From assembly GCF_001677475.2 (NCBI RefSeq), contig NZ_CP015229.1: 64,000 nt of DNA; one strand, given 5' to 3'. Source of the DNA: Escherichia coli. GTDB taxonomy: Bacteria; Pseudomonadota; Gammaproteobacteria; Enterobacterales; Enterobacteriaceae. The translations under genes and the position numbers were made by a program. Below are positions 1-58,949 of the stretch, piece by piece; position 1 is the stretch's first letter; each line of letters starts with the position of its first letter. Under the pieces are notes generated by a model. It saw nothing but the letters and a program-made list of their open reading frames with translations. It searched no databases and had not been told where the DNA came from.

Positions 1-480
1 GACACTTTGTTGTGCCGGGCGGTTTTGCAGAGAAGCGATCACTTCTTCGGTATCCAGATAATGGTAAGCCAGCATATAGGTGAGCTCATCAAGCACCACT
101 AAGTCGTAACGCTTGTCAGCCAGCATCCGTTTGCTTTCCGACCAGACCTCTTTCGCCGCGTCGATATCCGCTTGTCGGTTCTGTGTTTCCCAGGTAAAAC
201 CGGTTCCCATAATATGAAACTCAACCCCCAGCGGCTGGAGAAGGTTGTATTCGCCGTTGTCCCATTGCCCCTTGATGTACTGCGCAACCCCCACCGTTTT
301 GCCATGACCCACCGCGCGCGTCACAGTACCAAACGCGGCAGTGGATTTCCCTTTGCCGTTGCCGGTGAAAACAATCAAGATCCCTTTTTTCTCTATCGCC
401 GCCGCGACGCGCGTATCGACCTGTTCCTTCAATTTCTGCTGGCGCTGCACATGCCGTTCTGTTGAAATTCGCGCTTCCAT
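1..480 (-). CDS. ATP:cob(I)alamin adenosyltransferase paralog (BtuR/CobA/CobO family), N-terminal part; gene continues past window start
   Basis: Minus-strand frame from ATG (complement 478-480) with AGGA Shine-Dalgarno upstream; translation MEARISTERHVQRQQKLKEQVDTRV...GILIVFTGNGKGKSTAAFG...VVLDELTYM matches BtuR P-loop and motifs. Not in ORF track because it runs off the window. Confidence 0.8.
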   Translation of the reverse strand, partial: MEARISTERHVQRQQKLKEQVDTRVAAAIEKKGILIVFTGNGKGKSTAAFGTVTRAVGHGKTVGVAQYIKGQWDNGEYNLLQPLGVEFHIMGTGFTWETQNRQADIDAAKEVWSESKRMLADKRYDLVVLDELTYMLAYHYLDTEEVIASLQNRPAQQSV

Positions 481-2249: not shown

Positions 2250-3530
2250 TCAGGGCAGAGCAACGTTCGATTCATTGGGTTTTAATGCTTTACCCCGACA
2301 GCCCTCGCCGAAATGTTCGCCTTCCCACCGACTCACCATCGCAGCGCCCATTGCGTTGCTCATGACGTTTGTCGCGGAACGCCCCATATCAAGGAACGGA
2401 TCAACGCCCATCAGCAAGATCAGCCCCGCTTCCGGAATATTGAACTGGTTGAGCGTGGCGGCGATAACCACCATTGAAGCGCGTGGTACGCCAGCCATTC
2501 CTTTCGAGGTCAACATCAGGATCAACAGCATGGTGATTTGCTCACCGATGGATAAATGGATATTGCAGGCCTGGGCGATGAAAACTGTGGCGAAGGAGCA
2601 GTAGGCCATTGATCCAACGAGATTAAATGAGTAGCCAATGGGTAAGACAAAGCTGGCAATTTTGGGGGAAACGCCAAATTGCTCCAGTTTTTCAAGCGTT
2701 CCTGGAAAAGCCGCTTCAGAACTGGATGTGGTAAATGCCAGCAGGGCGGGTTCCGAAAGGGCGCGGGTCAGGCGTCTGATGCAGGGGCCGACATAAACGA
2801 TGGCCAGACCGATAAGCAGCACCCAAAGTAACAACATGGTGAAATAAAATTCACCCATAAAGATCCCGGCGCTCACCATAACTGCCAGTCCTCGTTCAGC
2901 AATCAATGCTGAAATAGCGGCGAATACGGTCAGGGGAGCGAAGAGCATGACGTAGCCAGTGAGCTTTAACATGGCATGTGCCAGCGAATCTAAGGCGTGA
3001 ACGATGGCGCTGCCTTTCTCGCCAATCGCCGTCAGGCTACAGCCGAGGAAAATTGAGAACACCACGATTTGCAAAATTTCATTGTGCGCCATGGCATCGA
3101 CAATGCTGGTGGGGAAAGCATGCGAAATAAATACTTTTAGCGTGAAGGGTTCTGACGCGACCACTCCAGTGGTTTCGGCACCGTGTGCAACAAAATTAAT
3201 TCCTGTACCTGGCATGAAGAAATTTACTGTTATTAAGCCTAAGGCAATTGACAGCAATGAGGCGCAAATAAATAAAAAGAGTGTTTTAGAAAAAATACGA
3301 CCAAGGGCTTTGGCATCGCCCATTTTAGCAATACCTACCACCAGGGTAGAGACCACTAACGGAGCGATAATCATTTTTATCAGTCGTAAGAAAATCGTCG
3401 TGAATATCGATATTTCTTGCGCATAGAGTTTTGCGGTTTCCGGTGAAGCAGTGTTATTGAGCACTACGCCGATAACCATTCCAAGTACCAGCGCCAAAAG
3501 AATCATCGTGGTTAAACTTATTTTCTTCAT
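2250..3530 (-). CDS. Dicarboxylate/amino acid:cation symporter (GltP/DctA-like), possible glutamate or C4/C5-dicarboxylate transporter
   Basis: Hydrophobic multi-TM ORF with DAACS-like motifs; start chosen at MKKISL (complement ATG 3528-3530) preceded by GGAGG; ORF-track start at 3551 rejected. Confidence 0.75.
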   Translation of the reverse strand: MKKISLTTMILLALVLGMVIGVVLNNTASPETAKLYAQEISIFTTIFLRLIKMIIAPLVVSTLVVGIAKMGDAKALGRIFSKTLFLFICASLLSIALGLITVNFFMPGTGINFVAHGAETTGVVASEPFTLKVFISHAFPTSIVDAMAHNEILQIVVFSIFLGCSLTAIGEKGSAIVHALDSLAHAMLKLTGYVMLFAPLTVFAAISALIAERGLAVMVSAGIFMGEFYFTMLLLWVLLIGLAIVYVGPCIRRLTRALSEPALLAFTTSSSEAAFPGTLEKLEQFGVSPKIASFVLPIGYSFNLVGSMAYCSFATVFIAQACNIHLSIGEQITMLLILMLTSKGMAGVPRASMVVIAATLNQFNIPEAGLILLMGVDPFLDMGRSATNVMSNAMGAAMVSRWEGEHFGEGCRGKALKPNESNVALP

Positions 3531-3580
3531 TTTTTCCTCCATCAGGTGCACGGCGATAAATCAGAATCAGGAGAAGTAGA

Positions 3581-3602
3581 TGCCTGAATAGAGATTCAGG
3601 CA
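3581..3602 (-). other. Perfect hairpin (tgcctgaat-aga-attcaggca) in intergenic gap inside the island operon
   Basis: Inverted repeat read directly between the DUF4387-like gene stop and the transporter start. Confidence 0.4.
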
Positions 3603-3690
3603 TCTACCTGCTATTACAACCTTACAAATAGCTGAAGTGTTGAACTGCAATAAGTGACGGGATGTCAGTTGGCTAAAAGTGTTCGGATTT

Positions 3691-4008
3691 TTACAAATCG
3701 AAACTCATATTTAATAAAGGTGCATGTTGCTGTGCACCATAGACATCATTGTCACCTACATTCCCGGAGATAATATCTCGTGGCATGACGATTTTTACTG
3801 CGTTAGAAGGATCAAACCAGACAATACGATGAATAAAGTCAGGTTCAACATGATATAAGCGCGCAATCAGTTCTGGGGTTAATTGCCCTGATGATTTAAC
3901 TCGCTCATAGTTTTCTTTGGTTTTAAATAAAATATCTAAAACCAGTTCGTAAGGTCCGGCATTTTTCGAACGAATGACTTGCGCCAGTGAGACAATTGAC
4001 TGTTTCAT
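3691..4008 (-). CDS. Small conserved protein of unknown function (DUF4387-like), partner of upstream AtuA-like gene
   Basis: 105-aa ORF; start overlaps upstream gene stop by 4 bp; family assignment from memory of DUF1446/DUF4387 pairing. Confidence 0.6.
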   Translation of the reverse strand: MKQSIVSLAQVIRSKNAGPYELVLDILFKTKENYERVKSSGQLTPELIARLYHVEPDFIHRIVWFDPSNAVKIVMPRDIISGNVGDNDVYGAQQHAPLLNMSFDL

Positions 4009-5375
4009 GCCTGAACTCCTTCTGGCGTCACCTGTTCAATATGGAAATCAAAACGCAGAGCGTCGTTGGCTTCAATCAGGTGATATATGGAAAATTCGTA
4101 TACTGGCCCGCCCTGGATATCAGAAGGGGAGAACGGGAACGCCAGGTTGCCTGCGGTAGCGATGCGGTTTTCATAGCCGTAGTGCAGCATAGTAGAGCGC
4201 ACCAGCGAGCAAACGCTGTTGGCAATTTCCTGGGTCGATGCAACTACATCTAGCACAATCCCCAGCTCATGCCCGGCAGTTTGCATCGGTTCATGGTCGC
4301 CCATCACCCCGTTTTTGCCGTACAGGTGGAAATTGATGCGAATGCTGTCATCGTCGAGCGACAGGTTACGCGAAACGCTGGTTTTGACTTCATCGATGAT
4401 TTTATCGATCCCGGCGATCATGATCGGGTCGCGCGTTCCTGCGATGGTCAGACAGCGGAAGCCCACTCGTCGCGCACCTTCCAGTTTCAGGGCATACGGC
4501 GTTCCTTCATGCTTAGAACCGCTGACGTACACTTCGCCGTCATTGACCGCTTTAAATGTGCAGCCTTTCAGGTTCAACACGCCGCCAGGTCCAGGCAGGA
4601 AGTAGGGATCGGATTTCTCATACAGTGTGTGTGCAGCCGCTGACGTTTCGGTAAATTTACGCTTCGGATTAAATGTCTTCAGCGTAAAGCCGTTGTCATC
4701 AATGATGCCCATCGCACAGTCAGAGCCTGAGCCGGGCGTTGCGGCGATTGCCGCGCATTCAAGGATTTTCCCACAATGCAGCGCCAGACCTTCATCAAAG
4801 CCTTGCATGATCGGTAGCGCAGCAAAGCAGGCCGGGTCGTAAGCGCGCCCGCCCAGCACCACTTGCGCGCCTTCTTTCAGCGCCTGCTGGAAGGGTTCGA
4901 TGCCCATTTGCGCGACGATATACGTACTTTCGTCAATCGCGTCGTGGGTTAACGGCGGGACAAAATCCAGCGCCGTGATTTTGCCGTTATCCAGCGCCTG
5001 GTGGACGATGGCTTTGTCAACGTCTGCCGGGATCAACGCCATCGAGAACGAGAGGTGCTCTTCCCGGGCAATCTCATGAATTATTTCTCGGCACCACTCC
5101 AGGTGTGGTGCGGCACCAGAACCGCCAGCCGTTCCGATCACCACCGGTATATTATTTTGCACGCCTGCGGTGATCATATAGCGCAGATCGCGCTTGACCC
5201 CTGCGCGATCGGTAAACGGTTTGCCTGCCCCGAGGTAGTGGGGGCCTGGATCGGAAGAGCCTGCATCAACGGCGATCAGATCGGGCGATTCTGCCATCGC
5301 TTTGCGGAAGCTCTCTTCCGGGAATCCATACCCGAGGATTGCCGTTGGCGATAAGACTTTAAAAGAACGAGCCAT
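4005..5375 (-). CDS. AtuA-like (DUF1446) family protein of unknown function
   Basis: 456-aa ORF, in-operon between methylaspartase and the DUF4387-like gene; family call from sequence feel, not a search. Confidence 0.6.
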   Translation of the reverse strand: MARSFKVLSPTAILGYGFPEESFRKAMAESPDLIAVDAGSSDPGPHYLGAGKPFTDRAGVKRDLRYMITAGVQNNIPVVIGTAGGSGAAPHLEWCREIIHEIAREEHLSFSMALIPADVDKAIVHQALDNGKITALDFVPPLTHDAIDESTYIVAQMGIEPFQQALKEGAQVVLGGRAYDPACFAALPIMQGFDEGLALHCGKILECAAIAATPGSGSDCAMGIIDDNGFTLKTFNPKRKFTETSAAAHTLYEKSDPYFLPGPGGVLNLKGCTFKAVNDGEVYVSGSKHEGTPYALKLEGARRVGFRCLTIAGTRDPIMIAGIDKIIDEVKTSVSRNLSLDDDSIRINFHLYGKNGVMGDHEPMQTAGHELGIVLDVVASTQEIANSVCSLVRSTMLHYGYENRIATAGNLAFPFSPSDIQGGPVYEFSIYHLIEANDALRFDFHIEQVTPEGVQA

Positions 5376-9921: not shown

Positions 9922-10468
9922 GGGTAATCCTTTGTAAGACAGAGAGTAAAATAAGTTACACACGTCGTATTTATGGCCGCTCATAACGGCACAGGTTTAA
10001 TATCACAGGAGTGTCTTTATCTGACCGTAATGTTGCAATTGATCTATTTTCAAAATGTCTTTCGGGAAATGATTGTTTAAAGTGTGTTTTCAAATTCTCA
10101 TTTTAATTCAGTGTGTTATGTCAACTAATGTCATGAATGTTAAATTTTTAAAATTAACTTGATTTGATGTATTGAGATAATTGTGATCAACTTCTAATTT
10201 GCATTTTTGTGACGTGGCTTTAGCCATGAGTAAATGCATTTCATAAAAGTTAAGTCGAATTTCACTGCAATTCATCTCTGCTTAATGTAAAAATAATGTT
10301 GAAAATAACAAATAATTAATGATTCATGCGAATTATGACCTTTGTTAGCTCTTTTGATTTTTCGTAAAAAAGAAAAGCACATGAAGGTGCTACCAGTACG
10401 AGAAACGTTAATCAAAAGTTTTATTACGTCTGGCAATAACGCAGGCCATTTTTCGCGACAGGAGGGAT
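9922..10468 (-). promoter_or_regulatory. AT-rich leader/promoter region of the glutamate mutase operon
   Basis: About 550 bp non-coding, very AT-rich, directly upstream of the first operon gene; no specific sites identified. Confidence 0.4.
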
Positions 10469-10891
10469 TTAATCAGTATAATCCTCATACAATAGGTCAG
10501 GATTTACAGAACCGTTAACGGGGTTTTGGTGTTGAAATTTAGAAATGGTGGAGTCAATCAATGAAGACAGTATCGAAAAAATGACTGTGTCAGAACTAAT
10601 TTCAATTAATCCTTCTCGTTGTTGATCAAAAAAGATATTTATCTTGATTTCATTTGTACTACGGCAATCAATATGTAGTAATTTTTGATCGCTGAGATTT
10701 TCTGTTTCATAAATGTTTTTGGCGATAGTCGGATGTATTGATGCCAGACATCTGCTCAGATAAGCCATATCCTTTAAGGAACTCCCCGCTGAGTAGAGGA
10801 TGTCAGAGAATTTTTGTGTGTCAACTGTTGTCTCTGAAGCGTATGTTGCATTGACAGGAAGAGTATTGAAAGAGATCTGAGATGGTATCAT
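10469..10891 (-). CDS. Hypothetical acidic small protein (140 aa), second gene of AT-rich two-gene module
   Basis: Complete ORF in AT-rich DNA; Asp/Glu-rich, no motif I recognise. Confidence 0.55.
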   Translation of the reverse strand: MIPSQISFNTLPVNATYASETTVDTQKFSDILYSAGSSLKDMAYLSRCLASIHPTIAKNIYETENLSDQKLLHIDCRSTNEIKINIFFDQQREGLIEISSDTVIFSILSSLIDSTISKFQHQNPVNGSVNPDLLYEDYTD

Positions 10892-10972
10892 TATTTAAAT
10901 CTTTCCGTGAGTAATAAAAATTAATCCCCAGGCATTGTTTAGCAATATTTGCCATAGGGGATATATAGAAAA

Positions 10973-11917
10973 TTAAAGTATTTTATTGGCTTCGGTTAAC
11001 TGATCTATAACCAGTGCCAGATTGGTAAACATTTTGAAAAAGCGATACTGGCTCGGAATATCTCTTTCAAAGACGAAACATTCAAGGTCATTGTTTGAAA
11101 AATAAAGGACTAGTGTTGCTGATTCGTCAGGGAAAACATGGAAATGTATCTGGTTACCAGAAGGAGGATAGTCCAGAAGAAGGGTATCTTTGCCCGTCAC
11201 ATACCTGTTGTTGTCGTGGACGCTACGCTCACACTTCATCAGAGGTGTCAGGATACTCATGTATTCATCTGATGTTAATTTATTAAAATCATCATTCATT
11301 TTAAAGAAACGATAAAGTAACAGTACATCCTCTTGCGTAACCGGTTCGTTTGTTTTTAGAGGGAAATAAGCGGGAACCAGAAGATGAGGTTCTAATCTAT
11401 TTTGTTGAGCGCTATAACTGAATTTGAACATAAATTCTGGATCGCTCATCAATTGAGCGACATAATTATGCCTGGCTTCAAAAATTTTAATTTTTATCAG
11501 GTTGAATAAGTCTGTTTCGTCATCCTGTATTAAAAGACATTGGCCATAGCAGCCTGGATTTTTTTCATTATAAGCAGAAACGGTTATTCTGTCAGAGGTG
11601 TCAACGTTATATTCAAAAGCCAGATAGTGACCTTCTTCATCGCGATTTGTTTCCAGGTTATTTAAATTCATCACATGAAGTGTTTGCAATGCTGATTCAA
11701 TGAGTTGTTGACTCTCTGAGGTAAATGTTTTGCGCTGCGTTGTATAAAGTGTATCAATTCCAACGACTATCCGATGTGGATCAAGGATGGCGGCAATCAT
11801 CTTTATTACCTGCACAGTCACGGGTGATGTCATTGATTCTTCATCTGTTTTTAGAGGATCATTAGATGGCCAACCTGAGAAGCGATTGACAGCCGAACCG
11901 ATATTATCTGGACTCAT
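10973..11917 (-). CDS. Hypothetical protein (314 aa), first gene of AT-rich two-gene module
   Basis: Complete ORF, same strand and 81 bp upstream of the 140-aa ORF; no TM segments or known motifs recognised; spot-checked 60-bp lines are about one-third G+C. Confidence 0.55.
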   Translation of the reverse strand: MSPDNIGSAVNRFSGWPSNDPLKTDEESMTSPVTVQVIKMIAAILDPHRIVVGIDTLYTTQRKTFTSESQQLIESALQTLHVMNLNNLETNRDEEGHYLAFEYNVDTSDRITVSAYNEKNPGCYGQCLLIQDDETDLFNLIKIKIFEARHNYVAQLMSDPEFMFKFSYSAQQNRLEPHLLVPAYFPLKTNEPVTQEDVLLLYRFFKMNDDFNKLTSDEYMSILTPLMKCERSVHDNNRYVTGKDTLLLDYPPSGNQIHFHVFPDESATLVLYFSNNDLECFVFERDIPSQYRFFKMFTNLALVIDQLTEANKIL

Positions 11918-12722
11918 AGCAGCAACCTCATTGTAATCAAGCGAGGCGCTGAGCGTACTCGGCTATAGAAAAACTAACTTGCAAAAATCGCTCATTTTTC
12001 ATTTATCAGGCGAAAGTGGCCTCTGTTCACTCAGAAACAATCACTCCCGCTAAGTCATACCTGTTTCATCGATACATTTAAGTGATTATTACTAATGAAA
12101 CAATAACATAACGGGCTTACGGTCGGTGCTCATAAAGGCAACAATCAATTAACTTTGATAAAAATATGTTATGTAAAATAGCAACAAATTGGCTACTCTA
12201 ATCAATTGGTATTATAAAAAGAGGATAAGGCGGTTCTGTTAAATAAAACACTGGTTTTTTATCTATACCTTTTCATTGTAATAATTGTGTTGCATAAATA
12301 TTTCACAATAAATTAACAATAAAATCACCAATGATCTATGGTTTATACATAATTAACATATTTGGTTGGTTTTGATATAAATCAATTTTTAATTCTTGAA
12401 AAAAATCTGCAAAACACGATAAATTGTCGTAGATCAAATTGGTGAGATCGTGACAATTTCGCTATAAATTGATCACTGTCGAAAAATGCAAATTTGCTCA
12501 ATAAAAACCTGTTTATTGTAAGGATTTTGCGGCGTAATATAATTACGGGATCAATTTGGTTTATTCATTAACATATTTGTAACTTTTTTATCATTGTCTT
12601 TTCCTCTTTTGATGAAATGGCAACGATAGAGGCGAGCAAATAATTTTGTATTGGGGCATGCGTGTGACCCTTTCTAACGGGGTTCACTCTCGGAGTCTTC
12701 ATGCGATGAGCAAGGAGTCATG
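11918..12722 (+). promoter_or_regulatory. cydAB upstream regulatory region, AT-rich
   Basis: Long AT-rich non-coding region before cydA; in E. coli the cydAB promoters are controlled by ArcA, FNR and H-NS (established knowledge); individual sites not resolved by eye. Confidence 0.5.
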
Positions 12723-20307: not shown

Positions 20308-20853
<546 letters not shown>

Positions 20854-20862
20854 GAGAATTGC

Positions 20863-21654
20863 ATGAGCAGTAACTTCAGACATCAACTATTGAGTCTGTC
20901 GTTACTGGTTGGTATAGCGGCCCCCTGGGCCGCTTTTGCTCAGGCACCAATCAGTAGTGTCGGCTCAGGCTCGGTCGAAGACCGCGTCACTCAACTTGAG
21001 CGTATTTCAAATGCTCACAGCCAGCTTTTAACCCAACTCCAGCAACAACTCTCTGATAATCAATCCGATATTGATTCCCTGCGCGGTCAGATTCAGGAAA
21101 ATCAGTATCAACTGAATCAGGTCGTGGAGCGGCAAAAGCAGATCCTGTTGCAGATCGACAGCCTCAGCAGCGGTGGTGCAGCGGCGCAATCAACCAGTGG
21201 TGATCAAAGCGGTGCGGCGGCATCAACGACGCCGACAGCTGATGCTGGTACTGCGAATGCTGGCGCGCCGGTGAAAAGCGGCGATGCAAACACGGATTAC
21301 AATGCAGCAATTGCGCTGGTGCAGGATAAATCCCGCCAGGATGACGCAATGGTGGCATTTCAGAATTTCATCAAAAATTACCCTGATTCAACTTACCTGC
21401 CAAACGCCAATTATTGGCTGGGTCAGTTAAACTACAACAAGGGTAAAAAAGATGATGCGGCGTACTATTTTGCTTCGGTAGTAAAAAACTATCCGAAGTC
21501 ACCAAAGGCTGCAGATGCGATGTTTAAAGTCGGTGTCATCATGCAGGACAAAGGTGACACCGCAAAAGCGAAAGCCGTATACCAGCAGGTTATCAGTAAA
21601 TACCCTGGTACTGATGGCGCTAAACAGGCACAAAAACGTCTGAACGCGATGTAA
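20863..21654 (+). CDS. cpoB: Cell division coordinator CpoB (YbgF), TPR protein
   Basis: 263-aa ORF with signal peptide, coiled-coil region and C-terminal TPR repeats. Confidence 0.95.
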   Translation: MSSNFRHQLLSLSLLVGIAAPWAAFAQAPISSVGSGSVEDRVTQLERISNAHSQLLTQLQQQLSDNQSDIDSLRGQIQENQYQLNQVVERQKQILLQIDSLSSGGAAAQSTSGDQSGAAASTTPTADAGTANAGAPVKSGDANTDYNAAIALVQDKSRQDDAMVAFQNFIKNYPDSTYLPNANYWLGQLNYNKGKKDDAAYYFASVVKNYPKSPKAADAMFKVGVIMQDKGDTAKAKAVYQQVISKYPGTDGAKQAQKRLNAM

Positions 21655-21818: not shown

Positions 21819-21894
21819 GGGTCGTTAGCTCAGTTGGTAGAGCAGTTGACTTTTAATCAATTGGTCGCAGGTTCGAATCCTGCACGACCCACCA
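21819..21894 (+). tRNA. lysT: tRNA-Lys (anticodon UUU)
   Basis: 76-nt gggtcgttagctcagttggtagagcagttgacttttaatcaattggtcgcaggttcgaatcctgcacgacccacca, anticodon loop cTTTTaa, CCA encoded. Confidence 0.97.
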
Positions 21895-21922
21895 ATCGCT
21901 AAGGTGGAAGCGGTAGTAAAAC

Positions 21923-21994
21923 GTGAAGGATAACGTTGCGTCAGCAACGGCCCGAAGGGCGAGACGAAGTCGAGTCATCCTGCACGACCCACCA
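21923..21994 (+). repeat. Spacer repeat ending in a tRNA-Lys 3' fragment (tcctgcacgacccacca)
   Basis: gtgaaggataacgttgcg.cagcaacggcccg.agggcgag..gaag.cgagtcatcctgcacgacccacca recurs three times in the array. Confidence 0.7.
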
Positions 21995-22029
21995 CTAACA
22001 TAGTTAGTTGTAGTATCCAGCGTAGTATC

Positions 22030-22105
22030 GGGTGATTAGCTCAGCTGGGAGAGCACCTCCCTTACAAGGAGGGGGTCGGCGGTTCGATCCCGTCATCACC
22101 CACCA
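22030..22105 (+). tRNA. valT: tRNA-Val (anticodon UAC)
   Basis: 76-nt gggtgattagctcagctgggagagcacctcccttacaaggaggg...cacccacca. Confidence 0.97.
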
Positions 22106-22107
22106 CC

Positions 22108-22183
22108 GGGTCGTTAGCTCAGTTGGTAGAGCAGTTGACTTTTAATCAATTGGTCGCAGGTTCGAATCCTGCACGACCCACCA
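22108..22183 (+). tRNA. lysW: tRNA-Lys (UUU)
   Basis: Identical to the first tRNA-Lys copy. Confidence 0.97.
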
Positions 22184-22234
22184 CTAATTACGGTGGGTTC
22201 GGTGGAAGTAGTTTGTAGTATCCAGCGCAGTATC

Positions 22235-22310
22235 GGGTGATTAGCTCAGCTGGGAGAGCACCTCCCTTACAAGGAGGGGGTCGGCGGTTCGATCCCGTCA
22301 TCACCCACCA
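22235..22310 (+). tRNA. valZ: tRNA-Val (UAC)
   Basis: Identical to the first tRNA-Val copy. Confidence 0.97.
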
Positions 22311-22313
22311 CTC

Positions 22314-22389
22314 GGGTCGTTAGCTCAGTTGGTAGAGCAGTTGACTTTTAATCAATTGGTCGCAGGTTCGAATCCTGCACGACCCACCA
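22314..22389 (+). tRNA. lysY: tRNA-Lys (UUU)
   Basis: Identical tRNA-Lys copy. Confidence 0.97.
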
Positions 22390-22417
22390 ATTTTAACATC
22401 AAACTCAGATGTTAAGC

Positions 22418-22487
22418 GTGAAGGATAACGTTGCGCCAGCAACGGCCCGTAGGGCGAGCGAAGCGAGTCATCCTGCACGACACACCA
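22418..22487 (+). repeat. Spacer repeat with degenerate tRNA-Lys 3' fragment (tcctgcacgacacacca)
   Basis: Second copy of the spacer element, with one substitution in the acceptor-stem fragment. Confidence 0.7.
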
Positions 22488-22535
22488 ATTTTAAAGATTG
22501 GTTCCGAGTAGAAATCTTTCAGGTAACACCCGTAT

Positions 22536-22611
22536 GGGTCGTTAGCTCAGTTGGTAGAGCAGTTGACTTTTAATCAATTGGTCGCAGGTTCGAATCCTGC
22601 ACGACCCACCA
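22536..22611 (+). tRNA. lysZ: tRNA-Lys (UUU)
   Basis: Identical tRNA-Lys copy. Confidence 0.97.
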
Positions 22612-22644
22612 TCCTGAATGATTAAAGCAGCATAATCCCGCAAG

Positions 22645-22720
22645 GGGTCGTTAGCTCAGTTGGTAGAGCAGTTGACTTTTAATCAATTGGTCGCAGGTTC
22701 GAATCCTGCACGACCCACCA
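22645..22720 (+). tRNA. lysQ: tRNA-Lys (UUU)
   Basis: Identical tRNA-Lys copy, last gene of the array. Confidence 0.97.
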
Positions 22721-22724
22721 ATGT

Positions 22725-22751
22725 AAAAAAGCGCCCTAAAGGCGCTTTTTT
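22725..22751 (+). terminator. Rho-independent terminator of the tRNA operon
   Basis: aaaaaagcgccctaaaggcgctttttt: GC stem flanked by A- and T-runs. Confidence 0.85.
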
Positions 22752-22775
22752 GCTATCTGAGATATTCAAAGATTC

Positions 22776-22876
22776 GAACCTGCAGCAGGTTCGAGTTGAG
22801 CGCAGCGAAACAACGGAGCCGCTCGCGGCGACGGCCCGAAGGGCGAGCGAAGCGAGTCATCCTGCACGACCCACCA
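22776..22876 (+). repeat. Third spacer repeat with tRNA 3' fragment, downstream of the terminator
   Basis: gattcgaacctgcagcaggttcgag...cggcccgaagggcgagcgaagcgagtcatcctgcacgacccacca; T-arm-like and acceptor-like fragments without a full tRNA. Confidence 0.65.
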
Positions 22877-22880
22877 ATGC

Positions 22881-22907
22881 AAAAAAGCGCCCTAAAGGCG
22901 CTTTTTT
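22881..22907 (+). terminator. Duplicate copy of the tRNA-operon terminator hairpin
   Basis: Exact repeat of aaaaaagcgccctaaaggcgctttttt. Confidence 0.8.
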
Positions 22908-23063
22908 GCTATTCAGGCATCTCTCAATTTCAATTCTTGACCCTGATGACATACTCCGCGCTTGCTGCGTAAACAACTCTACGTCGGAGGAATAAGACGC
23001 AAAGTGTGGCATTCGGCATCTCATACGTAATTCGAGTGACTTTTCCCCACCATTCGACTATCT

Positions 23064-53843: not shown

Positions 53844-54002
53844 CCATCCTGTATTTGGTTAAATTGCGAGCGAGATCGCGTCTTCGATTGACTGCAATTT
53901 AACCAATTAAATTCTAAAATAATCACGAAAAAAATTTTACTTCCGCCTCATGCGGCGAATGTGGGAATTGCCCAGGCGGCGGGGGATAGGGGCTGGAGAC
54001 AG

Positions 54003-54026
54003 TTATCCACTATTCCTGTGGATAAC
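54003..54026. promoter_or_regulatory. Inverted pair of DnaA-box-like 9-mers (ttatccact ... gtggataac) upstream of uvrB
   Basis: Read directly; a DnaA site in the uvrB control region is established knowledge, assignment to this exact pair is inferred. Confidence 0.45.
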
Positions 54027-57824: not shown

Positions 57825-57959
57825 GGCTTAACCACTAAACACTCTAGCCTCTGCACCTGGGTCAACTGATACGGTGCTTTGGCCGTGACAATGCTCGTAA
57901 AGATTGCCACCAGGGCGAAGGAAGAAATGACTTCGCCTCCCGTATCTGGAAAGGTGTAC
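57825..57959 (+). promoter_or_regulatory. Molybdenum-cofactor (Moco) riboswitch-like leader of the moa operon
   Basis: Long structured leader (...gcctctgcacctgggtcaactgatacggtgctttggccgtgacaatgctcgtaaagattgccaccagggcgaaggaag...) directly before moaA; boundaries approximate. Confidence 0.55.
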
Positions 57960-58949
57960 ATGGCTTCACAACTGACTGATGCATTTGCGCGTAAGTTTTA
58001 CTACTTGCGCCTGTCGATTACCGATGTGTGTAACTTTCGTTGCACCTACTGCCTGCCGGATGGCTACAAACCGAGCGGCGTCACTAATAAAGGCTTTCTT
58101 ACCGTCGATGAAATTCGCCGGGTTACGTGCGCCTTCGCCAGCCTGGGCACCGAAAAAGTGCGCCTGACAGGCGGTGAGCCGTCTTTACGCCGCGACTTTA
58201 CCGATATCATCGCCGCTGTGCGAGAAAACGACGCTATCCGCCAGATTGCGGTCACCACCAATGGTTACCGTCTGGAACGCGATGTGGCGAACTGGCGCGA
58301 TGCTGGACTTACTGGCATCAACGTCAGCGTTGATAGTCTGGACGCCCGCCAGTTTCACGCTATTACCGGGCAGGACAAATTCAACCAGGTCATGGCAGGG
58401 ATTGATGCTGCATTTGAGGCCGGTTTTGAGAAGGTCAAAGTCAATACCGTGCTGATGCGTGATGTTAATCATCACCAGCTCGAGACCTTTCTGAACTGGA
58501 TCCAGCATCGCCCTATCCAGCTGCGTTTCATCGAACTGATGGAAACGGGCGAGGGCAGCGAGCTCTTCCGTAAGCATCACATCTCTGGTCAGGTTCTGCG
58601 TGACGAGCTACTGCGTCGCGGCTGGATCCACCAATTACGTCAACGCAGCGACGGGCCCGCGCAAGTCTTTTGTCATCCGGATTACGCCGGAGAGATTGGC
58701 CTTATCATGCCGTATGAAAAAGACTTCTGCGCCACTTGCAACCGCCTGCGCGTTTCCTCCATTGGTAAACTCCATCTCTGCCTGTTTGGTGAAGGCGGCG
58801 TTAACCTGCGCGATCTGCTGGAAGACGATACCCAGCAACAGGCGCTGGAAGCGCGTATTTCAGCGGCGCTGCGGGAGAAGAAACAGACCCATTTCCTGCA
58901 TCAAAACAACACCGGTATTACGCAAAACTTATCGTACATTGGCGGCTAA
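57960..58949 (+). CDS. moaA: GTP 3',8-cyclase (Moco biosynthesis, radical SAM)
   Basis: [31 protein letters not shown] radical-SAM cluster motif; internal start (329 aa). Confidence 0.97.

Follow-up and report, generated by a model that had tools for sequence, protein, structure and literature searches.

The methylaspartate island of Escherichia coli encodes a B12-dependent route of glutamate fermentation and is carried by roughly one in five complete E. coli genomes, those of O157:H7 among them. Its regulation is essentially unstudied. An untranslated gap of its operon, between a run of enzyme genes and the gene of a transporter, carries a long perfect hairpin. The question raised by this locus is what the hairpin does: whether it acts as a DNA site, as a transcription terminator, as part of a regulatory leader or as a barrier to mRNA decay, or whether it is a neutral leftover. 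A search of the literature on ECs0757–0762 / Z0888–0893 returned the paper on the enzymology of FumD and otherwise unrelated matches, with nothing on the transcripts. The sole paper on the cluster being enzymological, no earlier description of the hairpin was found.

The operon and its intercistronic gaps

The window, that is, the whole stretch of 64,000 nucleotides that was analyzed, is from E. coli and contains the methylaspartate (glutamate fermentation) island as an accessory segment between sucD and cydA, as identified from the RefSeq annotation of an O157:H7 match. The operon lies on the minus strand of the window, with the gene order glmS, glmL, glmE (methylaspartate mutase), methylaspartate ammonia-lyase, AtuA-family, DUF4387, symporter, class I fumarate hydratase, and cobO. 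The class I fumarate hydratase of the island is the mesaconase FumD (ECs0757), which has been characterised (PMC4682846), and the symporter of the cluster is named GltP in Fig. 5 of the same paper. The operon seems to be built from modules, of which one (mutase/lyase) is Firmicutes-like and the other comprises transporter/fumarase/cobO (PMC4682846). The four genes closest to the hairpin were confirmed by Pfam, and the DUF4387 gene overlaps the AtuA-family gene (4005–5375). Of 5426 complete E. coli genomes, about 1120, O157:H7 included, contain the segment bearing the hairpin at 95% identity or more, once in each.

The initial annotation had placed the repeat in a gap of about 160 bp between the DUF4387 and transporter genes, upstream of a GGAGG ribosome-binding site. 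This placement was borne out by Pfam and RefSeq annotation, and the GGAGG was found where expected, 3′ of the hairpin and five nucleotides 5′ of the transporter ATG (Table 1). The size of the gap was also correct. It is the largest of the operon, but it is not the only sizeable one, as had been stated, since a second gap of 107 nt (2143–2249) separates the transporter gene from fumD. In E. coli this second gap contains no stable hairpin (best −6.0 kcal/mol). A promoter scan of the operon strand detected no sigma-70-like site in the DUF4387–transporter gap of E. coli or Citrobacter.

Two observations concern the surroundings of the operon and its distribution. The region upstream of glmS (9922–12000, minus strand) consists of an AT-rich non-coding leader of about 500 nt, containing TTGATCACAATTATC, which we take to resemble an FNR half-site, and beyond it two AT-rich open reading frames (about 10468–10890 and 10972–11916) that are annotated as hypothetical proteins only. 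Separately, a contig of a metagenome-assembled genome labelled Collinsella (JAIJJM010000101.1, locus L002) matches the island of E. coli at about 100% identity, down to an identical hairpin, and is probably a binning contaminant.

Geometry, stability and copy number of the hairpin

An inverted-repeat search returned two arms of 14 nt (3576–3589 and 3594–3607) that are 100% complementary and separated by a spacer of 4 nt, which reads AGAG on the plus strand and CUCU in the mRNA. A perfect repeat of 9 bp with a 3-nt loop had initially been described at 3581–3602. The repeat is indeed perfect, but this interval is the inner part of a 14-bp stem with a 4-nt loop. On the mRNA, the 5′ arm extends from 3607 to 3594, the loop from 3593 to 3590 and the 3′ arm from 3589 to 3576, giving the sequence GUAGAUGCCUGAAU-CUCU-AUUCAGGCAUCUAC. 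The hairpin, termed HP2, begins 83 nt past the stop codon of DUF4387 and is followed after 45 nt by the transporter AUG; the transporter initiation region thus lies 35–45 nt 3′ of it. With a closing G·U pair, HP2 has 15 bp (3575–3608) and a predicted folding energy of −22.5 kcal/mol. The extended helix consists of 16 contiguous pairs, including G3608·U3575, followed by two pairs past a bulged C3610.

Table 1 Features at the DUF4387–transporter junction, in window coordinates
Feature	Positions	Strand	Basis
HP2 core hairpin, 14-bp perfect stem	3576–3607	−	Inverted-repeat search; RNA fold
Extended HP2 RNA helix, 18 bp, −23.8 kcal/mol	3572–3612	−	Local hairpin scan
Second hairpin, weaker and irregular, predicted directly 5′ of HP2	3609–3649	−	MFE and centroid fold
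DUF4387 protein gene, 105 aa	3691–4008	−	Pfam PF14330, E 2.6e-39; RefSeq annotation
Dicarboxylate/amino acid:cation symporter (SDF/DAACS, GltP-like) gene, 426 aa	2250–3530	−	Pfam PF00375, E 1.6e-102; RefSeq
Intercistronic region (ICR), untranslated, 160 nt	3531–3690	−	ORF list and RefSeq annotation
Transporter translation initiation region	3528–3540	−	GGAGG 3540–3536, ATG 3530–3528; sequence, RefSeq start

HP2 is the longest perfect short-loop hairpin of the 64 kb, and 14 bp was not attained in any of 200 first-order Markov simulations, which excludes a chance palindrome of this length. When the mRNA strand of the operon was folded in 3452 sliding windows of 45 nt (mean −8.0 kcal/mol, sd 3.8), the one containing HP2 was the most stable, at −24.3 kcal/mol (z about −4.3). 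The folding energy in the transcribed orientation, proposed as a check in the initial annotation, is thus that of a highly stable hairpin by every estimate (−22.5 to −24.3 kcal/mol). The second most stable window of the operon mRNA (300–353, minus strand, −23.3 kcal/mol) is found within the cobO coding region near the operon end.

The hairpin is a single-copy element. Across 1123 E. coli genomes it was found at a single place in each (median 1). A search of the window for further copies with up to two mismatches returned nothing save its own other arm and one 12/14 match at chance level. Assignment to the REP, BIME or ERIC elements, which are defined by multiple copies, was rejected on this ground. 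An attC-like integron site was likewise discarded, as inspection by eye revealed no RYYYAAC or GTTRRRY cores at the base of HP2. Small open reading frames across HP2, such as 3454–3603 on the minus strand with its AUG inside the 5′ arm, were considered mechanical because the AUG is missing in other genera, and a reading frame running through HP2 is broken by 1-nt loop indels across genera. With Rfam 15 and a permissive E-value, the region 3000–4300 gave nothing but sub-threshold noise, the best score being 19 bits where the threshold is 50. No Rfam family was found in the gap at six orthologous loci or, when the whole window was scanned at the gathering score, elsewhere in the operon.

Other structured elements are present in the window. 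The CpoB/ybgF intercistronic RNA thermometer (Rfam RF02782, 142 bits) was identified in the tol-pal region at 20754–20892 (plus strand), and a molybdenum cofactor riboswitch (RF01055, 103 bits) at 57828–57972 (plus strand). Seven tRNA genes interleaved with three RtT RNA matches occupy 21819–22909 (plus strand). The next-longest perfect hairpins of the window, at 22725–22751 and 22879–22909, follow this array; they are associated with A/T runs and look like terminators. A perfect 9-bp inverted repeat, GTTATCCAC-N7-GTGGATAAC, is found at 54002–54026, and each of its arms presumably resembles a DnaA box (TTATCCACA).

Variation of HP2 within E. coli

The 52 nt around HP2 are identical in 610 records. 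The stem polymorphisms are mostly transitions that form G·U. Among the variants sampled, two in the stem were seen in more than one genome: A3603G, found as an exact match in 96 records, and A3585G, found in all four further genomes sampled. Each converts an A-U pair of the mRNA into G·U, which on the other strand is a C·A mismatch. In a third allele, A3585G is combined with two loop changes (CUCU to UUUU), and the stability is unchanged. One sampled allele carries U3578C, which creates an A·C mismatch near the base of the stem. An insertion was observed in E. coli strain 100416 (L062:1500–1620), where an IS1 element resides in the 5′ arm of HP2. The DUF4387 gene is deleted in this strain and the AtuA gene partly so, whereas neither the 3′ arm nor the transporter gene is damaged.

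Conservation of HP2 in other Enterobacterales

A scan for the DUF4387 protein with one genome per species yielded 58 loci. The transporter gene follows the DUF4387 gene in Citrobacter, Klebsiella, Raoultella, Enterobacter, Lelliottia, Pluralibacter and Buttiauxella, and also in Salmonella enterica subsp. arizonae and diarizonae, Yersinia, Morganella and Pseudescherichia. In these other genera the gap between the two genes measures 120–240 nt and is longer only where an ERIC-like insertion is present. ERIC/IRU-like elements (…CCCCAGG…GTGACTGGGG…) were seen in the gap of C. amalonaticus (L013:4319–4600) and K. oxytoca (L024:4319–4682) genomes, and REP-like sequences (CTTATCCGGCCTAC) in the transporter–fumD gap of loci L012, L016 and L026.

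An alignment of 39 orthologous gaps (A1) was built, of which the 33 that are not from Escherichia were used to estimate neutral rates and to construct a covariance model. Relatives in over 30 enterobacterial species have a stem-loop at the same position, in register with HP2 of E. coli and different in sequence, for example GGCGUGCGUCUGAGC...GCUCAGGCGCACGCC. RNAalifold predicts the HP2 helix from A1 unguided. Of the 15 pairs that HP2 of E. coli specifies, 13 display double-sided, compensatory changes. When HP2 is considered together with a second hairpin found upstream of it in other genera (HP1, see below), 88.4% of the cells at the 22 pairs are paired, versus 25–49% when the 3′ partners are slid by 1–3 columns, and the covariation score is reached by none of 500 column shuffles. 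Among the 33 sequences, identity is 0.63 in the loop, which is neutral, and 0.75 in the stem, where changes are compensated; third codon positions in the genes on either side have an identity of 0.67.

The covariance model, built without any Escherichia sequence, has a single match in the window, at 3528–3672 on the minus strand (22.6 bits, with a rough E-value of 0.003–0.009), and aligns all 15 HP2 pairs there. HP2 of E. coli and the hairpins of the other genera are therefore orthologous, and the E. coli ICR is homologous to the structured ICR of other Enterobacteriaceae.

The pairing is also better preserved on one strand than on the other. On the mRNA strand, 59 cells of HP2 hold a G·U pair and 16 an A·C combination, the latter corresponding to G·U on the other strand, and the antisense fold is usually several kcal/mol weaker. 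This asymmetry indicates a constraint on the RNA transcribed from the operon and not on a DNA palindrome. Pairing kept despite altered sequence, compensatory changes, wobble pairs on the mRNA strand and the polymorphisms of E. coli together demonstrate selection on RNA structure: HP2 is a selected mRNA stem-loop, conserved by compensatory evolution on the mRNA strand.

Two other readings conflict with the covariation, with the strand asymmetry and with the pattern of polymorphism. That HP2 functions as a DNA palindrome, be it the operator of a dimeric factor such as the adjacent LysR-type regulator, a recombination site or a REP/ERIC element, could be proposed from the perfect 14-bp palindrome in an intergenic region and from the LysR-family gene at the end of the cluster. 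However, the sequence of the half-sites varies between genera and complementarity persists, the 59:16 asymmetry would not arise from recognition of double-stranded DNA, and the E. coli polymorphisms break the DNA palindrome and keep the RNA paired. Moreover, there is one copy in each of the 1123 genomes with no second in the window, and an operator in the gap would have nothing to control, as the operon strand shows no promoter-like site there. A transcription-factor operator was rejected since neither conservation of half-sites nor equivalence of strands was observed, and a DNA role of any of these kinds is extremely improbable. That HP2 is a neutral leftover, either the fossil terminator of an ancestral operon boundary or a chance palindrome, would agree with the apparent assembly of the operon from modules (PMC4682846) and with the loss or degeneration of HP2 in Yersinia and Pseudescherichia. 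Beyond the simulations that exclude chance, 13 of 15 pairs have been compensated across genera in which synonymous sites are 67% identical, and a fossil would have decayed. This reading is considered very improbable.

Position of the hairpin relative to the flanking genes

All lineages have at least one stable hairpin (−12 to −38 kcal/mol) that starts 9–86 nt after the DUF4387 stop codon. The hairpin and the start codon that follows it are 29 to 220 nt apart. A hairpin after DUF4387 even persists in two Escherichia lineages that have no transporter gene, Escherichia sp. E1V33 and E. whittamii (loci L004 and L005, 4319–4586), where 268–290 nt separate DUF4387 from fumD. The steady presence of a hairpin behind the DUF4387 stop codon across lineages ties it to the upstream segment. 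The hairpin of E1V33 and E. whittamii is a different one, with 11 bp (AAAUGUACCUG...CAGGUGCAUUU) about 30 nt past the stop codon.

HP2 itself is replaced in Yersinia by an AU-rich sequence with a folding energy of about 0 kcal/mol, and Pseudescherichia is without HP2, from which it follows that the hairpin is not indispensable. In Morganella (loci L039, L041, L045 and L046), a 40-nt hairpin is found about 38–82 nt after the DUF4387 stop codon. Its base, UCGGUGUGG...CACAUCGA, is conserved, and its apical half has a wholly different sequence in each strain with pairing retained.

HP2 and transcription termination

A partial terminator was one of the two functions put forward in the initial annotation. 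It is poorly supported. An intrinsic terminator combines a stable G+C-containing stem with a U-tract. HP2 has the stem (14–18 bp) and lacks the tract: in E. coli the stem is followed by UUCUCCUG (UUCUCCUGAUUCUGAUUUAU), in which four of the first eight nucleotides are U. The terminator scan, which required at least five U in the eight nucleotides immediately 3′ of the stem, did not call the full hairpin, the tail falling one U below this rule. In addition, the fold of the extended helix predicts pairs between the first U's of the tail and upstream A/G. In about 30 other species, the tail of the orthologous hairpin is ACCCUACAC, with one U in nine, and no terminator-like site was called in the Citrobacter gap. 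Without a U-tract in either E. coli or its relatives, HP2 is not a canonical terminator, and with orthologous tails so poor in U the conserved function cannot be termination.

The situation may differ in single lineages. In Yersinia alsatica, the hairpin at the position of HP1 (L040:4360–4396) is canonical and terminator-like, with a 10-bp stem followed by TTTTTTCTAT. The DUF4387–transporter junction may thus be handled differently in Yersinia, and attenuation at this junction is plausible in some lineages. For E. coli specifically, HP2 could still be a leaky terminator because its tail has gained U's. As a leaky intrinsic terminator or attenuator, HP2 would lower transcription of transporter–fumD–cobO relative to the enzyme genes, and its strong GC-containing stem, the moderately U-rich E. 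coli tail and the terminator-like site of Y. alsatica in the same gap are compatible with this role. Against it stand the failure of the scan to call the full hairpin, the predicted absorption of the first U's into the extended helix, the covarying orthologues trailed by ACCCUACAC and the Citrobacter gap free of terminator-like sites. No promoter-like site lies downstream to restart transcription of the three further pathway genes. On balance, a leaky terminator is judged unlikely.

A candidate larger motif in other genera

In the 33 non-Escherichia gaps, HP2 is accompanied by additional conserved features. The upstream hairpin HP1 shows double-sided changes at five of its seven pairs. The linker AUUAUUCAUGCGGUUGGUCACAACA has an identity of 0.90 versus 0.67 for neutral sites. 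HP2 is possibly enclosed by a helix GGUUGGU:ACCARCC that is 95.9% paired, with compatible one-sided changes only, and that has a counterpart in Pseudescherichia (GCUGGU:ACCAGC). An ACCCUAC motif directly follows HP2 on its 3′ side. The gaps with HP1, the linker and the enclosing helix are those of loci L006–L037, L052 and L055, at about 4319–4490, from Citrobacter, Klebsiella, Enterobacter, Salmonella and Buttiauxella (alignments A1 and A3). In the MFE folds of several species, UCCAUUGG is a candidate anti-SD sequence pairing with CCGAUGGA in the SD region, with an unpaired probability of the SD of 0.07–0.16. This helix is 83% paired without covariation.

E. coli has kept HP2 and the SD region, which is invariant in A1. 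It has neither the conserved linker nor the enclosing helix nor the anti-SD sequence. The hairpin predicted directly 5′ of HP2 (Table 1) is not clearly the counterpart of HP1 of the other genera, although the covariance model aligns HP1 there in part.

It can be envisaged from these features that HP2 is the apical stem of a folded ICR domain of about 135 nt, composed of HP1, linker, HP2 and enclosing helix, that would serve as a cis-regulatory leader of the transporter gene. Such a leader might tune translation initiation or respond to a protein, a small RNA or a ligand. The covarying HP1 in 33 non-Escherichia species, the linker conserved above the neutral level, the highly paired enclosing helix and its recurrence in Pseudescherichia, and the anti-SD pairing in several MFE folds all speak for it, as does the presence in the window of a known intercistronic regulatory structure, the CpoB/ybgF thermometer. 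It is weakened by the E. coli version, where HP2 alone is kept of these elements, by the lack of covariation in the anti-SD helix and of double-sided changes in the enclosing helix inside A1, and by HP2, which neither contains nor pairs with the SD and belongs to no Rfam family. C/A-rich motifs are targets of the small RNA GcvB. Pairing between the R1 region of K-12 GcvB and ten ICRs, evaluated with RNAduplex, gave z-scores of −0.8 to +1.4 relative to dinucleotide shuffles, a crude comparison as the shuffles keep the C/A richness. Regulation by GcvB was therefore set aside, pairing being no better than with the shuffles. A leader function of HP2 is the second candidate reading, though an unlikely one.

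The linker and the possible enclosing helix, both conserved in sequence, would be unexplained by a plain exonuclease barrier and suggest a more elaborate element, which keeps the leader hypothesis alive. It is conceivable, though rather unlikely, that HP1, linker, HP2 and enclosing helix form an undescribed structured RNA motif, with HP2 as its most durable piece, that regulates the glutamate-type transporter and the downstream mesaconase/cobO genes upon a metabolite, protein or small-RNA signal, and of which E. coli has a simplified version. The larger motif of Citrobacter, Klebsiella, Enterobacter and Salmonella merits closer study as a candidate cis-regulatory RNA.

HP2 as a proposed barrier to mRNA decay

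The second function put forward in the initial annotation, an element of mRNA stability or processing, fits all the evidence that can be computed: stability, compensated structure and wobble on the mRNA strand. The best-supported reading makes HP2 a decay or processing barrier between cistrons, like that of malE-malF, rather than a terminator. We give this reading, which extrapolates from sequence analysis to function, a probability of about 45%. Its extreme stability, the indifference to the loop sequence, the conservation of pairing only and the tie to the end of the upstream gene fit a barrier, and the placement of HP2 between genes of soluble enzymes and the gene of a membrane protein agrees with it. 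In E. coli operons with differentially decaying segments, conserved protective 3′ structures are found at the boundaries (PMC5927463). HP2 likewise combines exceptional stability at a segment boundary (first of 3452 windows) with a structure conserved in relatives.

A barrier could operate as follows. The genes would be co-transcribed across the gap into a polycistronic mRNA, with glmS-glmL-glmE-mal-atuA-DUF4387 on one side of HP2 and transporter-fumD-cobO on the other, and HP2 would be the structural barrier that separates the fates of the two halves. Endonucleolytic cleavage is presumed to take place in the unstructured U-rich stretch 3′ of HP2, or in the poorly protected transporter segment. 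Exonucleases proceeding 3′ to 5′ would then stall at the HP2 helix. The predicted direction of the effect is that the upstream enzyme segment would outlive the downstream transporter segment. In a variant of this scheme, RNase III would cleave the HP2 helix itself.

If HP2 is merely a decay barrier, it is ordinary biology. It nevertheless represents a clean, single-copy, non-REP intercistronic hairpin maintained by compensatory evolution. A conserved RNA structure between the enzyme genes and the transporter/mesaconase/cobO genes also offers a handle on how the expression of both halves of the pathway is balanced.

Comparison with known systems

Rho-independent terminators and attenuators share with HP2 a GC-containing perfect stem with a tetraloop, and some U's are present in the E. 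coli tail. HP2 differs by the absence of the usual U-tract, by the C/A-rich tails of its orthologues and by its location inside a pathway operon. The CpoB/ybgF thermometer is, like HP2, a conserved structured RNA between cistrons of an enterobacterial operon. It sequesters the downstream ribosome-binding site, whereas HP2 ends 35 nt before the SD, is not paired with it and has no Rfam match.

Efficient substrates of RNase III typically have roughly two helical turns, and about 20 bp or more of near-continuous double-stranded RNA is expected of them. HP2 is comparable to the RNase III hairpins of the rpsO-pnp leader and of phage T7 (R1.1) in being a long, near-perfect double-stranded RNA between cistrons, but its helix of 16–18 bp (16 contiguous and 2 past the bulge) is shorter than these typical substrates.

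The 5′ protective hairpin of papB-papA (PMC5927463) is also intercistronic, upstream of the ribosome-binding site of the downstream gene and between co-transcribed genes. The papB-papA model calls for RNase E to have a site immediately 5′ of its hairpin, whereas in E. coli the RN|WUU-like matches, GAUUC and GAUUU, sit 3′ of HP2; these were picked by eye and, being short motifs, are expected by chance. Furthermore, HP2 tracks across lineages the upstream stop codon and not the downstream start.

The malE-malF element and the stem-loops described by Dar and Sorek in 2018 (PMC5927463) differ from HP2 in two respects. The malE-malF element is a multi-copy REP sequence and HP2 is single-copy; most of the elements of that study are inside coding regions, whereas HP2 occupies a 160-nt untranslated spacer. 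Among known kinds, they are the nearest to HP2 in presumed function. These stem-loops are very stable, located at the boundary of operon segments, conserved in Enterobacteriaceae and devoid of a U-tract. As in the malE-malF type, HP2 is found downstream of genes for soluble proteins and upstream of a gene for a membrane protein.
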